Assembly: GCA_030670615.1 (NCBI GenBank)
Contig: DAOVBJ010000001.1
Coordinates: 1-30,763, forward strand
Length of the DNA: 30,763 bases
Reading direction: 5' to 3'
DNA from: Candidatus Bathyarchaeota archaeon
GTDB taxonomy: Archaea > Thermoproteota > Bathyarchaeia > RBG-16-48-13 > GCA-020355125
The notes below the pieces were generated by a model. The model saw nothing but the letters and a program-made list of their open reading frames with translations, was not told where the DNA came from and did not search any database. A program made the translations under genes and the position numbers. Shown piece by piece: positions 9,208 to 13,895 of the stretch (the first letter of the stretch is position 1; every line of letters begins with the position of its first letter).

Positions 9208-10686
9208 CTAGATTTTCTGTTCATAGGCGTTTGTGAAGAAAAGTCGTGTTTCACCCATCGTCTTGACATTCAAAGGCTTGACCTCTATAATGATGGGGAA
9301 GTCGTTGGTTACCCTTCCCAAGGCTAGACAATAGTGTGGAGGCAGCTCTCGAGCGATCACATTAATGGTCTCCACGTCGACCATAGTCGCCTTTGACACG
9401 GCGGCTAAATCGTTTTCATTAGTGAAGTTGAAGAGGAAGACGTTGTCTGCCTGACGATAGATGCTGTCACTTATGCTGTCCGGCTGGTTGGTGATGAAGG
9501 TGCTAAAGACCCCGAGATGCCGCATGCGGGTGACTATGTCCTCCCAATAGGTCTTTCTCAGATAGAGGTGGGCTTCCTCTGCAAAGAGGAAGAGAGCTCT
9601 TAACACCCAGCGATCAAGCAAATTACACAGCTTACTCAACATAAACTCCACAACGATGTGACAAAATCTCGACGGCAACCCTCGGAGATTAACGATTAGA
9701 GCCCCTCCACTATTAAGCCCGAAAATTAGATCCTCCAACGTCGAGGCTTCCTGAGGGTTATCGGTCAAGAGGCCCGTGCTGACTAGACTATCGTATCGAC
9801 GGATAAGGGCATCTCTAACATAGTTATTTAATACTGATTCGATGGCTTTTCTAAGGTTCTTCAGGGTGAGTGTGCTTCTTTGTGACAGGGATGACCAGAT
9901 TCTTCGGATCTCCCAGGCTGAATTATCGGGAAGGTCGAGCACAGAGGACATGATCCGCAGAAAGACCCCGAGCCCCATGTATTCCAGGGTCACCTTGAAC
10001 CGTTTTCCCGGCGATAGAACGATGATTTTCTCGTGTGAAGCCGCTTTTTTGTAGTCTGCCCCATACCCTAAATTGACGTATTCCCCATTGACGTCGAAAA
10101 CGACGCAGATGCCTCCCTTCTCGATGAGGCTGAGGAGGAGCAGTTTTGAAAGATGGGATTTTCCAGTTCCCTTTTTGCCAGTAATGATGTTCAGCTTGCC
10201 ATCGATAGCCGTGAGGTTGACTGCGATTTCTGCACCCCCCTTCGTTGTTCCCAGGGTTATCGCGTTTTCTCCATGGAGCCCAATGAGTTCCAAGAATTCC
10301 CTGTCGGTCAAGTTTATGAGTTGGGAGGTTGAGCGGGAGGGTGTCCAGGAGATGTCGTGGTCGATTCTTCCATTCACTATGGCCTTGCGAATCTTGCAGC
10401 GGAAGACCTTCGCGTCTTTGATCACGTCGACGAAGGCCTTCACACCGAGGAAATCGAGGTTCCGTCCGTCAATGTTTTTGGTCGACGAATCCCTCAGAAT
10501 GTCCTCCAGCACCCCCGGGATATTCGCGTATCCGATGTTTGTAACCTGCACGATGAGGCTTCGGTTCACAGCGTTGTCCCTCACGATGATGTAGTCCCCC
10601 TTTTGGACACCCTGGGGTGGACAGGAAACGATATCCATGGTGTTTCCGTCAAGTTTATAGATGTGCATCATGGCCCTCACCATCAA
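9208..10686 (-). CDS. herA: HerA/FtsK-superfamily ATPase (DUF87/HerA-like helicase-translocase)
   Basis: N-terminal HAS-barrel-like region, Walker A GKKGTGKS, VFDVNGEY, Walker B AEEAH, R-H-L-G and TNQP motifs; start overlaps the nurA stop. Confidence 0.85.
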   Translation of the reverse strand: MMVRAMMHIYKLDGNTMDIVSCPPQGVQKGDYIIVRDNAVNRSLIVQVTNIGYANIPGVLEDILRDSSTKNIDGRNLDFLGVKAFVDVIKDAKVFRCKIRKAIVNGRIDHDISWTPSRSTSQLINLTDREFLELIGLHGENAITLGTTKGGAEIAVNLTAIDGKLNIITGKKGTGKSHLSKLLLLSLIEKGGICVVFDVNGEYVNLGYGADYKKAASHEKIIVLSPGKRFKVTLEYMGLGVFLRIMSSVLDLPDNSAWEIRRIWSSLSQRSTLTLKNLRKAIESVLNNYVRDALIRRYDSLVSTGLLTDNPQEASTLEDLIFGLNSGGALIVNLRGLPSRFCHIVVEFMLSKLCNLLDRWVLRALFLFAEEAHLYLRKTYWEDIVTRMRHLGVFSTFITNQPDSISDSIYRQADNVFLFNFTNENDLAAVSKATMVDVETINVIARELPPHYCLALGRVTNDFPIIIEVKPLNVKTMGETRLFFTNAYEQKI

Positions 10687-11741
10687 ATCCGTCTCGATGC
10701 GATGCCCCCGTAGGGTCCGAAGAGGATCTGCCGAACATTGGGTCGTCGGATGATCTTCAGATCGTAGTTTTCAGACACGTAGCGTTGCATGGCTAAGACT
10801 TCATTCGCTGAGAACCTTGACAGGATGTGTGCCAATCGAAGGGTCTCGGGGTAACTGTCAACGATCAAGTCGCTGCAGAGGAGATTTTCCACGGCCTGGA
10901 CGCCAGCTGCCTGCGAGACTTGTCGATCGATGTCCAAGCGAAAGCTCAGGGTTCCAGGCGAGAGCTTTACGGCGTATATTTTGCCGAAGAAGCGGAGGTA
11001 TTTCCCGTACTGGACGCGGACGACGTCGTCGATGTCGAGGAGGCAAGGGGCATTCCCAGAATCTAGTAACGAGTCCATCCTTCTTCCGAAGGCGGAGATG
11101 GAAGTCTTCTTGGATAAAGCTAGGATCACGTTTCGGGCATCCCTTGCTCGCTTGAGAAGGCTGCTTAAAATGGATATTGGGTTGTTAACCGTACGGGTGG
11201 TCAGCGAGCCGTCCCAGAGAAGGAGGGATTCTCGACGCGATTCACTAAGCTGTTTCTGAAGCCACCGCTCAAGGATGTTTCGGATGTGTTCAGGAATCCG
11301 CTCCAGAATAGGCGCTCCAACTCCCTCGTTCACGTCGAAACACCGTTGACGCAAGGCATTGTACAAGAAGTTTTTATTGGCTTCGGTGATGTGGAAGATG
11401 AAAGGGCCGTGGCGAACGTATTGATAGGCCTTATTCTCTCTCCAGACGATGCTGCCCCGAATTGCACAGAGAAATCCTTCCTTCGTTTCTCCTAAATCGA
11501 TGTTAGAGGCGTCCACTCCGAATACGGGAACCTCCTCTCCTGGATTTAACAGCGTGATCGGTTTGAGGAAGCTGTTTCCAATGGTGGGGTCTAACTCCAA
11601 CTCGTCCGCGAAGTCACCGCCGTCAAGCCCGGGCACTGCCATCGCCCTCGAAAGATTTAAGTCCACCACCTCCTTCAAGGAGGTGTATCCTATTTCGACG
11701 AAATTCTCTGGTGTTATCTGGCTGAATTCAGCTATTTCCAT
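10683..11741 (-). CDS. nurA: NurA-family nuclease
   Basis: FGVDAS (first catalytic Asp), LLWDGSL (second Asp), LALSKKT, and C-terminal YPETLRLAH, typical of NurA; coupled to herA. Confidence 0.82.
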   Translation of the reverse strand: MEIAEFSQITPENFVEIGYTSLKEVVDLNLSRAMAVPGLDGGDFADELELDPTIGNSFLKPITLLNPGEEVPVFGVDASNIDLGETKEGFLCAIRGSIVWRENKAYQYVRHGPFIFHITEANKNFLYNALRQRCFDVNEGVGAPILERIPEHIRNILERWLQKQLSESRRESLLLWDGSLTTRTVNNPISILSSLLKRARDARNVILALSKKTSISAFGRRMDSLLDSGNAPCLLDIDDVVRVQYGKYLRFFGKIYAVKLSPGTLSFRLDIDRQVSQAAGVQAVENLLCSDLIVDSYPETLRLAHILSRFSANEVLAMQRYVSENYDLKIIRRPNVRQILFGPYGGIASRRI

Positions 11742-11815
11742 ATAACCGCATCCCTTGATGTGTGAATCGTAGCCATTTGACGTGTAAAGCGGAGGCTGGG
11801 GATTGAGAGTAAACT

Positions 11816-11824
11816 ACTTATAAA
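11816..11824. promoter_or_regulatory. Putative bidirectional TATA box (CTTATAAA on +, TTTATAAG on -)
   Basis: Lies ~25-30 nt upstream of the structured element at 11849 (+) and ~75 nt upstream of the nurA ATG (-). Confidence 0.5.
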
Positions 11825-11848
11825 GAAGATACGACTATCTTTAGTCTT

Positions 11849-11936
11849 GGTGCAGTGGGGAATCGTCAATATACCTAACCTCCTTTGCGATCAGTCGCAT
11901 GGGGTTCCCTTAAAACCCGATGCGAACCGCTGCACC
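11849..11936 (+). ncRNA. Candidate structured small RNA (three-way junction), family unknown
   Basis: Closing stem GGTGCAGTGG (11849-58)/CCGCTGCACC (11927-36); a G-U pair favours the + strand. Hairpin TCGCATGGGGTT (11895-906)/AACCCGATGCGA (11914-25). Bulged hairpin ATCG-T-CAA/TTGCGAT with a 15-nt loop. Upstream TATA at a suitable distance; no credible ORF. Confidence 0.55.
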
Positions 11937-11956
11937 CTCCGTTTTAGCGGAGGGTG
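11933..11956. terminator. Perfect 9-bp hairpin CACCCTCCG-TTTTAG-CGGAGGGTG (terminator, processing signal or alternative fold)
   Basis: Read directly; lies between the candidate RNA 3' end and the end of the convergent four-gene operon. Confidence 0.4.
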
Positions 11957-11992
11957 ATCGTACTTGCTTTCTACCTTCGACCTCCTTTCAAC

Positions 11993-12418
11993 CTACTTAA
12001 CTCGAATGTAGCCATATTCTCTACCTTCCTTAACCCGCCTCAACGCGCCCTTTTTCGTCAGGTCTGTGAGTCGTCCCTTCACGGTTCCAACAGGATAGTG
12101 GATGGCATTCACCTTCATGACTTCAAGGAGTTCCCTCAGCTTCCTAGGTTTTTCTTTGCCCCATTCGGTGGAGAGAATTTTAAGGATTGCTTCGGGACAA
12201 GGGGTATCGGGCTCGACGGAGATTGAAGGTATGCTTGCTTGTCTTAGAATCGTTGGTTCCGCGATGGGTTTTATGAGCGTAATGTTGAAGGCCTGGGTTA
12301 GTTTATCCATAATGTTGGAAAAGTTGTTTATCGCTTCCAACACATCTTCCTTGGAGCCACTCACCTCAATTTCATTGTTTCCGAAACGGATTTTGATGGT
12401 GAAAGGCAGGCTACTCAT
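11993..12418 (-). CDS. Winged-helix protein, paralog 4 of 4
   Basis: N-terminal FTIKIRFGNNEIEVSGSKEDVLEAI; C-terminal wHTH-like TVKGRLTDLTKKGALRRVKEGREYGY; ATGA overlap with the upstream paralog. Confidence 0.8.
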   Translation of the reverse strand: MSSLPFTIKIRFGNNEIEVSGSKEDVLEAINNFSNIMDKLTQAFNITLIKPIAEPTILRQASIPSISVEPDTPCPEAILKILSTEWGKEKPRKLRELLEVMKVNAIHYPVGTVKGRLTDLTKKGALRRVKEGREYGYIRVK

Positions 12419-12921
12419 CGGTGTCCCCTCATTTTCACGTTTTGAAGCACTTTCTCGGCTTCTTTGATTCCCAGACTCTTGATTTTGTACTCGCCTCTTC
12501 CAACCCTTTCCACAAGACCGTCGTCGATCATCCCCTTCAACTTGTTAAGAATCGTCTTCAAAGCCTTGCCACTAACGGTTGCGATTTGAGTGACGGACAC
12601 GGACTCCTCAGCGGACAATCCGAGCTTGTTTCCAACGTAGACTCCGAGAAGAGAAAGCACTATCGCTTCTTCTGACGTCAGATCCCTCGGAGTGAGGATT
12701 AATCCTTCCGAAGAATACTCTATCACGCCCTCCAATGCCTGGGCAAGCTTGATCAAGTCGGGCTTGAAGACCAGTCTACTGGCTAGCTTGAACGCAGGAT
12801 ACACTTTGTTGAGGAAGTCTATGAACGCGATTGAAACAACTTCGGGACTCCCCTCAAAGTCCGCCTTGAACTCCCCGTATTCCGCATGCACTCGCAGCTT
12901 TCCCTCCACCATTCTTGACAC
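12415..12921 (-). CDS. Winged-helix protein, paralog 3 of 4
   Basis: LRVHAEYGEFKADFEGSPEVV...; LEGVIEYSSEGLIL; KLKGMIDDGLVERVGRGEYKI. Start may be ATG at 12912 (GAGGGAG 8 nt upstream). Confidence 0.8.
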   Translation of the reverse strand: MSRMVEGKLRVHAEYGEFKADFEGSPEVVSIAFIDFLNKVYPAFKLASRLVFKPDLIKLAQALEGVIEYSSEGLILTPRDLTSEEAIVLSLLGVYVGNKLGLSAEESVSVTQIATVSGKALKTILNKLKGMIDDGLVERVGRGEYKIKSLGIKEAEKVLQNVKMRGHR

Positions 12922-12925
12922 TCCC

Positions 12926-13429
12926 TCACATGAACGATTTAATCTTGGGGAGAACCTCTTCAGAAAAGGACTTTATCCCATACGTGGTGATCCGGTACTC
13001 TCCTCGACCCGCCCGTTCAACCCAATTCATCTGCACTAGCTCACTGAGCCTTGCCGCTGATGAACTCGGCTTTCCGCTAGTTATGGATATAATGTCGGAT
13101 ATCGACATGATGTCCAAGTCCAGTTTTCCCAACTGATAGCCGATGTACGTCTTCACTAGGTGGAGGAGAATAACCTCTCGCTCCCCAAGCAACTCTTGGG
13201 GGATAATCACGATCAACCCTTCAGGCGTTATGGCGATGATGCCCTCAACCCCCTTCACCAGCTTTTCCAGGTCGGTGGTGAGGGTCAGTCTGGAAACCAA
13301 TTCGTAAGTGGGCAACATCTTGTTCAAAAACTCAAGAAAGAACCTGACCACCTCGTTAATGTCGCCCGAAAATTTGACTTCGAGGCCCCGATACGTCACA
13401 ACGACTTCAACAACTTCGTCTCCACTCAT
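12926..13429 (-). CDS. Winged-helix protein, paralog 2 of 4
   Basis: VEVVVTYRGLEVKFSGDINEVV...; VEGIIAITPEGLIV; RLSELVQMNWVERAGRGEYRI; clearly similar to paralog 3. Confidence 0.8.
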   Translation of the reverse strand: MSGDEVVEVVVTYRGLEVKFSGDINEVVRFFLEFLNKMLPTYELVSRLTLTTDLEKLVKGVEGIIAITPEGLIVIIPQELLGEREVILLHLVKTYIGYQLGKLDLDIMSISDIISITSGKPSSSAARLSELVQMNWVERAGRGEYRITTYGIKSFSEEVLPKIKSFM

Positions 13430-13445
13430 CTTTTGCTCCCCTACC

Positions 13446-13895
13446 TTACGTCTTAAGTTTTAAAATCAACTCTTTAATCCACTTCTTCCCCGCGACTGAC
13501 AATCGATATCCGCTGCCTTCCTTGATTATGTTGCCTTCCCTCCTCATTTCACTTAAACGCGAACCGTACCCCGATGTACCGTGGCCGCTGAGTGATAGGA
13601 GAGCACCGACCTCTTTAGGCTCCAAGGGGTTCGGGTTCTGAGAGTAGAGAAGGAGGCCAATGCCTTCTTTACTGCTGACCCGGTTCTTGGGGATTATAAG
13701 TTGAGGGCCTTCGGAGGAGACTTCTATGATCCCGCCCAACTCCTCTTCTTGACCTGTGTCCGTGGTTGACATCATTTTGTCGATGACGACGAGCCACTCC
13801 GGAAAGGCCTCTAATCCCTGAACCACCTCGTCCAAGCTGTCCCCTTCGACTTCGATGTTTCCGTAAGGACGCTTCACCGTCACTCGAATTTTCAT
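13446..13895 (-). CDS. Winged-helix protein, paralog 1 of 4
   Basis: IRVTVKRPYGNIEVEGDSLDEVV...; LGGIIEVSSEGPQL; RLSEMRREGNIIKEGSGYRLS. Confidence 0.8.
   Translation of the reverse strand: MKIRVTVKRPYGNIEVEGDSLDEVVQGLEAFPEWLVVIDKMMSTTDTGQEEELGGIIEVSSEGPQLIIPKNRVSSKEGIGLLLYSQNPNPLEPKEVGALLSLSGHGTSGYGSRLSEMRREGNIIKEGSGYRLSVAGKKWIKELILKLKT

Follow-up and report, generated by a model that had tools for sequence, protein, structure and literature searches.

We found an 88-nt element on the plus strand of the window (11849–11936) that is almost certainly a real, conserved, structured RNA. The window is the whole stretch of 30,763 nt analysed here, one contig of a 1.2-Mb archaeal MAG. It belongs to the Bathyarchaeia, a lineage whose members are abundant in sediments and uncultured. 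On the minus strand, the same 88 bases hold a Shine-Dalgarno (SD) sequence, a start codon and an open frame, all of which the preliminary description of this DNA missed. On balance, we favour the reading that the element encodes a cis-antisense sRNA masking the translation start that feeds nurA. Regulators of this kind are known, whereas this particular RNA family is new, as are its host and its target. To our knowledge, the number of archaeal regulatory RNAs that are understood is small and, for the Bathyarchaeia, essentially zero, and our literature search found no report of an RNA at nurA–herA. Here, an RNA family absent from Rfam combines covariation, a recognisable candidate promoter and an obvious target, namely a leader that is coupled or fused to NurA. 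If the antisense reading is correct, this would be a rare archaeal case in which conserved antisense control of translation can be traced through evolution.

The plus strand of 11849–11936 has a minimum free energy (MFE) of −37.4 kcal/mol (z −4.77), and none of 200 shuffled sequences folds as well. The reverse strand gives a weaker fold (−35.0 kcal/mol, z −3.43). The sRNA body, delimited by its fold z-score, covariation and strand bias, consists of a closing stem of 10 bp (H1, 11849–11858 with 11927–11936), an open loop on the 5′ side (11859–11894) whose middle stretch is mostly unpaired, and a hairpin of 12 positions (H3, 11895–11925). H1 and H3 are each defined by both fold and covariation. 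A C-rich motif, CCTCC here (11879–11883) and CCCCC in other lineages, is predicted to lie unpaired in the loop. The preliminary description had already recognised the closing stem, with a G-U pair valid on the plus strand only, and the 12-position hairpin with one mismatch. We confirmed both: the U-G pair of H1 becomes an A-C mismatch on the other strand, and the mismatch in H3 is G-G.

We compared the element with known RNA classes. Across the whole window, nothing in Rfam 15 reaches its gathering score; the best match at E ≤ 10 (minus strand, 17.7 bits, cut-off 39.1) is a meaningless chance match. ARAGORN finds no tRNA gene in the window, and Rfam gives no tRNA match even at E ≤ 10, in agreement with the earlier statement that the element does not fit a tRNA. 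Sec/Pyl-like, split and intron-bearing tRNAs were likewise ruled out by ARAGORN, Rfam and manual parsing, and a cloverleaf does not suit a family with two conserved helices only. The absence of C/D box features, also claimed before, was borne out by direct reading: 11849–11936 contains neither a C box (RUGAUGA) nor a D box (CUGA), and neither is conserved in the family alignment, so that an archaeal C/D box sRNA was rejected. An archaeal H/ACA sRNA was rejected as well, the internal loop having a single nucleotide on its 3′ side and H1 being followed by CUCCG, with no 3′ ACA. Direct reading found no K-turn or hammerhead motifs. A plus-strand riboswitch or cis-leader is excluded by the fact that the plus-strand DNA downstream is the antisense of par4, one of the neighbouring paralog genes, in every locus.

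We then collected homologues of the RNA. Two congeners are 95% identical across the region and carry little information. A covariance model built from the congeners gave full-length matches in four more distant genomes. A two-helix model (H1 and H3) found one copy each in 13 of the 151 genomes of the class that were sampled, including 3/9 genomes of family f1, 5/5 of f2, 2/2 of f7 and 2/2 of f30. Unfiltered searches of the paralog loci revealed the RNA in three further genomes (G078, G377 and G397). By eye it is also present in G044, where a poly-C assembly run lies inside it: about 25 C residues stand in place of H3 (locus L029), probably an assembly artefact. The whole-genome model search scores a subset of candidates and missed the RNA-bearing G078, and the genome counts are therefore lower bounds. 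A pattern scan of metagenome contigs yielded at least 15 further true matches among the 80 loci listed. Altogether, the covariance-model and pattern searches give at least 31 copies (27 distinct), one per genome, from at least six Bathyarchaeia families plus metagenomes. Conservation in syntenic genomes, which the preliminary description had named as a check, is thus found, with the synteny kept. The model search found no RNA in 130 genomes from other classes of the same phylum, and viral contigs gave two pattern matches but no true model match. A NurA query against the genome contigs returned only two close relatives.

Covariation across related genomes, named as another check, is strong in both H1 and H3. 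Among the 31 sequences (27 distinct), 95.5% of the H1 and H3 cells are paired, and 13 of the 21 pairs show compensatory changes in the 27 distinct homologues. No column shuffle out of 500 matches the observed value, and partners slid out of register pair in only 32–48% of cells. The sequences of H3 are almost wholly different among families, and the helix is nonetheless retained. The two helices also tell the strands apart. Wobbles are G-U in 51 cells and A-C in 10; pairing falls from 95.5% on the plus strand to 88.0% on the minus strand; and the plus strand has the better fold in 20 of 26 loci. The wobble U8-G81 occurs in 23 of 27 sequences. Pair 5/84 runs through C-G, U-G and U-A, a series that is the pattern expected if selection acts on the plus strand.

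The second, bulged hairpin of the preliminary description did not hold up as a family feature. It appears in the MFE structure of the present sequence; alone it reaches only −3.0 kcal/mol (z +0.15). Its pairing in the first seven homologues is 78%, with numerous breaks, and the hairpin is missing from the shortest members (73–74 nt). The middle stretch alone has a mean z of −0.27 over the 27 distinct homologues. The three-way junction proposed earlier finds no support in the family, since the second hairpin is not conserved. Because this hairpin is not a family feature, the family is better described as a single long stem with interruptions, in which H1 stacks on H3, with a 5′-side loop of 21–37 nt and a 3′-side gap of 1 nt. 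Within the loop, the columns of the C-rich motif have a mean unpaired probability of 0.7–0.9. The run CCYCC is present in 25 of 26 distinct loci, the exception being G002 with TCTCC.

We then investigated the opposite strand. The CCTCC motif consists of the same bases as a minus-strand SD sequence, GGAGG (11883–11879), and a TTG start codon (11869–11867) lies 9 nt downstream of it. The leader ORF of 45 codons (11869–11732, minus strand) starts in the sRNA gene, crosses the putative sRNA promoter and ends 10 nt inside nurA. An antisense sRNA of this kind should lie opposite the SD and start of its target, and in 25 of the 26 distinct loci it does: GGAGG or GGGGG occupies RNA positions 30–36, and the start codon follows 5–13 nt past the SD at RNA position 15, 18, 21 or 24, with a constant phase relative to H1. 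Most start codons are AUG, with UUG or GUG in some loci. The leader phase stays open for at least 42 codons from the start in 20 of 20 representatives, compared with medians of 0.5 and 9.5 codons for the other two minus-strand frames. The leader has 42–49 codons and ends 10–14 nt inside nurA in families f1 and f2, and in the other lineages its frame is fused in frame to NurA. Of the 22 ORFs of the window that were checked, only 2 are preceded by a full GGRGG, one being the leader (background, 4% of 20-nt windows). The 22 nt upstream of nurA contain no GGAG or GAGG, leaving nurA without an SD of its own.

The leader peptides themselves are poorly conserved. Only an H-x-T near the N-terminus is shared, which mirrors the sequence of H1, and the peptides of the congeners differ at 10 of 45 residues. 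Since the peptides are unconserved and the block upstream of the RNA is read in varying frames, the frame appears to matter as something translated, not as a protein sequence. For the NurA gene models in L008, L014, L028, L031, L099, L055, L016 and L017, the only SD-bearing in-frame start lies inside the sRNA gene. Such NurA proteins would therefore carry an N-terminal extension of 30–50 residues derived from the sRNA promoter region. If so, gene models need correction, with the NurA start in many MAGs placed inside an sRNA gene. The case also cautions that a conserved loop motif that seems free-standing can be the mirror image of a ribosome-binding site (RBS).

The region upstream of the RNA is conserved in a pattern that resembles a promoter. 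In archaeal promoters, the TATA box is centred near −26 and preceded by a purine-rich BRE. The box CTTATAAAG noted in the preliminary description is present at 11817–11825, ending 23 nt before the first G, and is TATA-like; a BRE-like AGTAAA lies at 11808–11813. Both are within a conserved block, and together they form a putative sRNA promoter (11808–11825, −41 to −24 from the first G). In an ungapped alignment of 20 representative loci anchored at the +1 G, the block aG.aaa..AcTTATTA at −42 to −24 holds 0.80 bits per column, against 0.21 farther upstream. An AT-rich proximal block (columns −12 to −1, here 11837–11848) holds 0.70 bits per column, and nearly all of these loci have a pyrimidine (T or C) at −1 and a G at +1. 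The BRE/TATA-like block stands at the right distance from the +1 G and shows directional asymmetry. We therefore read it, by inference, as a plus-strand promoter. Coding does not explain its conservation, because the minus-strand frame across it differs by lineage; its fixed spacing could partly mirror the coding frame that it occupies. A T-run follows H1 (11942–11945 here), with a modest enrichment (35% T in 12 nt), and is missing in some lineages. The preliminary proposal of an independently transcribed plus-strand sRNA thus stands in part: the conserved BRE/TATA-like and AT-rich blocks, the Y(−1)/G(+1) context and the G-U bias argue for it, and transcription itself is a prediction from these signals.

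The gene neighbourhood is as the preliminary description placed it. To the left, on the minus strand, are nurA (10683–11741, ATG at 11741; Pfam NurA, 8.8e-8), the presumed regulated gene, and herA (9208–10686; Pfam DUF87/HerA, 5.6e-11), which overlaps the nurA stop. To the right lies an operon of four winged-helix paralogs (11993–13895, minus strand), convergent with the sRNA and found on this side of the RNA wherever sequence is available. The order herA, nurA, RNA (on the opposite strand), paralog operon is kept in 26 of 26 distinct loci wherever the flanks are available. This synteny extends to NurA identities below tblastn detection, and Pfam confirms NurA and HerA at the divergent loci. 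The unbroken linkage upholds the suggestion of a functional link to NurA-HerA. An RNA that is a physical partner of the proteins is unsupported, as the motif is the exact complement of the minus-strand RBS. With the loop motif complementary to the RBS and the 5′ part of the RNA covering the start that feeds nurA, the arrangement points to antisense control of nurA translation.

A partnership with the winged-helix proteins, the other suggestion of the preliminary description, gained no support either. An AlphaFold2 model of par4 (pLDDT 81.7) gives only generic DNA-binding winged-helix matches, of the Fur/MarR/ScpB type, with E ≥ 0.008. An RNA-binding role of the paralogs was considered on account of a weak KH-like match in Pfam (E 0.007), which the par4 model does not bear out. 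The paralog family is present in 204 of 401 genomes of the class, far more widely than the RNA, and has other surroundings in those other families. The first paralog (13446–13895, minus strand) has no SD-like motif in its upstream 22 nt, and the internal cistrons have GAGG or GGGG; the sequence fits a leaderless or short-leader first cistron.

In the antisense model, an sRNA of about 88–95 nt would be transcribed from the plus strand by its own BRE/TATA promoter, starting at G 11849. The stem of H1 on H3 would leave the loop of 21–37 nt open and put the C-rich motif on display. The loop would pair with the SD, and the 5′ end with the start codon and the codons right after it, in the leader or in NurA itself. 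This pairing would stop 30S binding and thereby leader translation; through coupling by overlapping stops and starts, the translation of nurA and probably of herA would also be switched off. As a result, the nuclease/motor pair would be uncoupled from the upstream winged-helix genes, which are probably on the same transcript. In archaea, a start codon led by an SD is typically that of an internal cistron. Since such starts mark internal cistrons and the first paralog lacks an SD, the mRNA that is targeted probably reads through from the paralog operon. If this is true, the nuclease/motor pair would be under tight control separate from its neighbours. A pure antisense RNA needs no covarying structure, and the strong conservation of H1 and H3 may therefore mean an added role in stability, protein binding or a trans target. 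One such dual role, in which the RNA would mask the nurA start and, by virtue of its rigid H1–H3 rod, its U-G wobble and its open loop, would also be the guide or a stable RNA subunit in a complex of NurA-HerA and winged-helix proteins, seems quite improbable to us; if true, it would amount to an RNA-containing DNA-processing or defence machine in archaea.

The minus strand has predicted structure of its own, which bears on whether a plus-strand RNA is needed at all. A hairpin (hairpin T, CACCCTCCG / CGGAGGGTG; 11933–11956, minus strand) lies just past the par4 stop, and one of its arms is formed by the last 4 H1 bases. In nearly all lineages, a hairpin reusing the last 4–10 bases of the 3′ strand of H1 is predicted, with differing sequences, and in 21 of 26 loci the segment has its better fold as the minus strand (summed energies −435 versus −378 kcal/mol). 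The preference of this 3′ flanking hairpin for the minus strand assigns part of the conserved structure to the mRNA, and we read hairpin T as a predicted 3′ or intercistronic element of the paralog/nurA mRNA. When 11800–11992 is folded as the minus strand, the MFE structure holds the H1 complement, and the centroid keeps T and the H3 complement without the H1 complement, with SD and start free. In these predictions, T competes with the H1 complement on the mRNA and may set the openness of the leader start. This could be all there is: an intercistronic translational operator in the minus-strand mRNA and no plus-strand RNA. The H1 complement would pair leader codons 2–5 with a segment about 75 nt upstream, T would compete for that segment, and the nurA start would open or close, for example with ribosomes finishing at par4. 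The SD and start do sit in a loop closed by the H1 complement, the MFE and centroid structures differ exactly by T versus the H1 complement, and so strong an SD suggests that the cistron is an internal one in a longer transcript. We nevertheless consider an operator without an sRNA unlikely. The excess of G-U over A-C wobbles in H1 and H3 speaks for the other strand, and, read on the minus strand, U8-G81 becomes an A-C mismatch that has been conserved. The operator would also leave unexplained the Y/G context and the AT-rich −10 and BRE/TATA-like blocks, none of which is conserved as protein. Such an operator is also compatible with the antisense model, in which it would be a structure of the target itself.

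Conversely, the RNA may be real and act elsewhere, as a trans-acting or protein-bound molecule (a scaffold, decoy or guide of NurA-HerA or the winged-helix proteins, or a general SD-binder) for which the overlap with the nurA start is secondary. The covariation of H1 and H3 exceeds what plain antisense pairing needs, the U-G wobble recurs in 23 of 27 sequences, the open conserved loop could bind a protein or other mRNAs, and the RNA is strictly co-located with one protein set. There is also a precedent in sRNA162, an archaeal cis-antisense RNA that also acts in trans (PMC3510493). The SD and start on the opposite strand, however, account base for base for the conserved letters of the loop, and no second target is consistently placed in the neighbouring mRNAs: RNAduplex searches of the loop against them in 15 loci, a crude comparison without an accessibility term, gave no consistent site. 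The generic DNA-binding character of the par4 model and the distribution of the paralogs far beyond the RNA also argue against such a role, which we regard as decidedly unlikely. Finally, the minus-strand frame could encode a real small protein or an N-terminal extension of NurA, with the conservation being a by-product of coding and the RNA having no function. One frame is open in all lineages and the H-x-T is conserved; past this motif, however, the peptides are unlike one another, and the promoter-like block is read in different frames. Moreover, compensatory changes tie codons 2–5 to bases 70–80 nt away. Only RNA pairing explains such long-range changes, so that a pure coding constraint is excluded, and we give the coding explanation as a whole hardly any credence.

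The antisense reading can be compared with several known systems. In hok/mok/sok of plasmid R1, an antisense RNA lies over the start of the mok leader, which overlaps hok and is needed for hok translation. The leader-coupling layout is similar here, but the product is the 352-aa NurA together with HerA instead of a small membrane toxin, and most lineages have their leader joined to NurA. A type I toxin-antitoxin system was rejected: the leader peptides are neither conserved nor membrane-like and are mostly NurA-fused, and the regulated product would be NurA. Conserved antisense sRNAs are also found in Pyrobaculum and other archaea, where they are chromosomal, overlap a protein gene or converge with one, and are shared by related species. 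The Bathyarchaeia RNA resembles them in being archaeal, chromosomal, overlapping with a protein gene and conserved among relatives. Those sRNAs are defined by RNA-seq, whereas the present RNA is defined by comparative sequence analysis only, but with helix covariation.

Two other sRNAs have been described as acting on an RBS or start codon. The art200 RNA of IS200 in Enterobacteriaceae is a sRNA of about 90 nt, encoded opposite the 5′UTR of tnpA, that pairs over the SD and start codon and blocks initiation; the tnpA leader has its own repressing secondary structure too (PMC4513863). The sRNA proposed here is similar in size and is encoded opposite the start of its target, with a proposed block of initiation. 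The two differ in setting, art200 belonging to a bacterial transposon and being linked to Hfq, whereas the present locus is an archaeal chromosomal nuclease/ATPase locus, and in that the putative promoter of the proposed sRNA lies within the reading frame of the target. In Methanosarcina mazei, an unstructured single-stranded stretch of sRNA162 masks the RBS of an internal cistron, so that the operon is expressed in a dis-coordinated manner, and the 5′ end of sRNA162 targets a cis-encoded mRNA as well (PMC3510493). The proposed mechanism shares with it an archaeal host and the use of a single-stranded stretch against an internal-cistron RBS. However, sRNA162 masks that RBS in trans, whereas here the RBS is the perfectly complementary opposite strand, and the two RNAs have no sequence or structural similarity.

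We also examined relatives that have NurA without detectable RNA. In G005 (L183, 2520–2598), par4 is followed by a spacer of about 80 nt in which GGAGG stands 7 nt before the GTG of nurA, and there is neither a leader nor the RNA. This counter-example fits the antisense reading. G005 is a relative from the same family, and its layout may represent a simpler ancestral or a derived form of the operon. Three genomes of f3 and one of f5 have NurA without detectable RNA and an AT-rich spacer of about 500–620 nt with repeated CAATTCAACAAT-like words. In G012 (f4), NurA is present, and we found neither detectable RNA nor an adjoining paralog operon. In G004 (L181), about 100 bases at the NurA N-terminus are masked as N, and the presence of the RNA there cannot be judged. 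The genomes with NurA and no detectable RNA thus indicate that the RNA and the leader or N-terminal extension come as a package. This package is one of several modes of organising nurA expression in the cluster. In f3, the spacers of L184, L185 and L186 (G011, G020 and G017) are 560–620 nt long and AT-rich, with several CAATTCAACAAT / TTGTTCAATAG-like repeats, which are plausible candidate operator sites for the winged-helix proteins. The minus strand of one metagenomic sub-lineage carries a gene for a NUDIX hydrolase (Pfam, 1.2e-21) just upstream of the paralogs (L099, 5268–5708; L055, 10376–10816).
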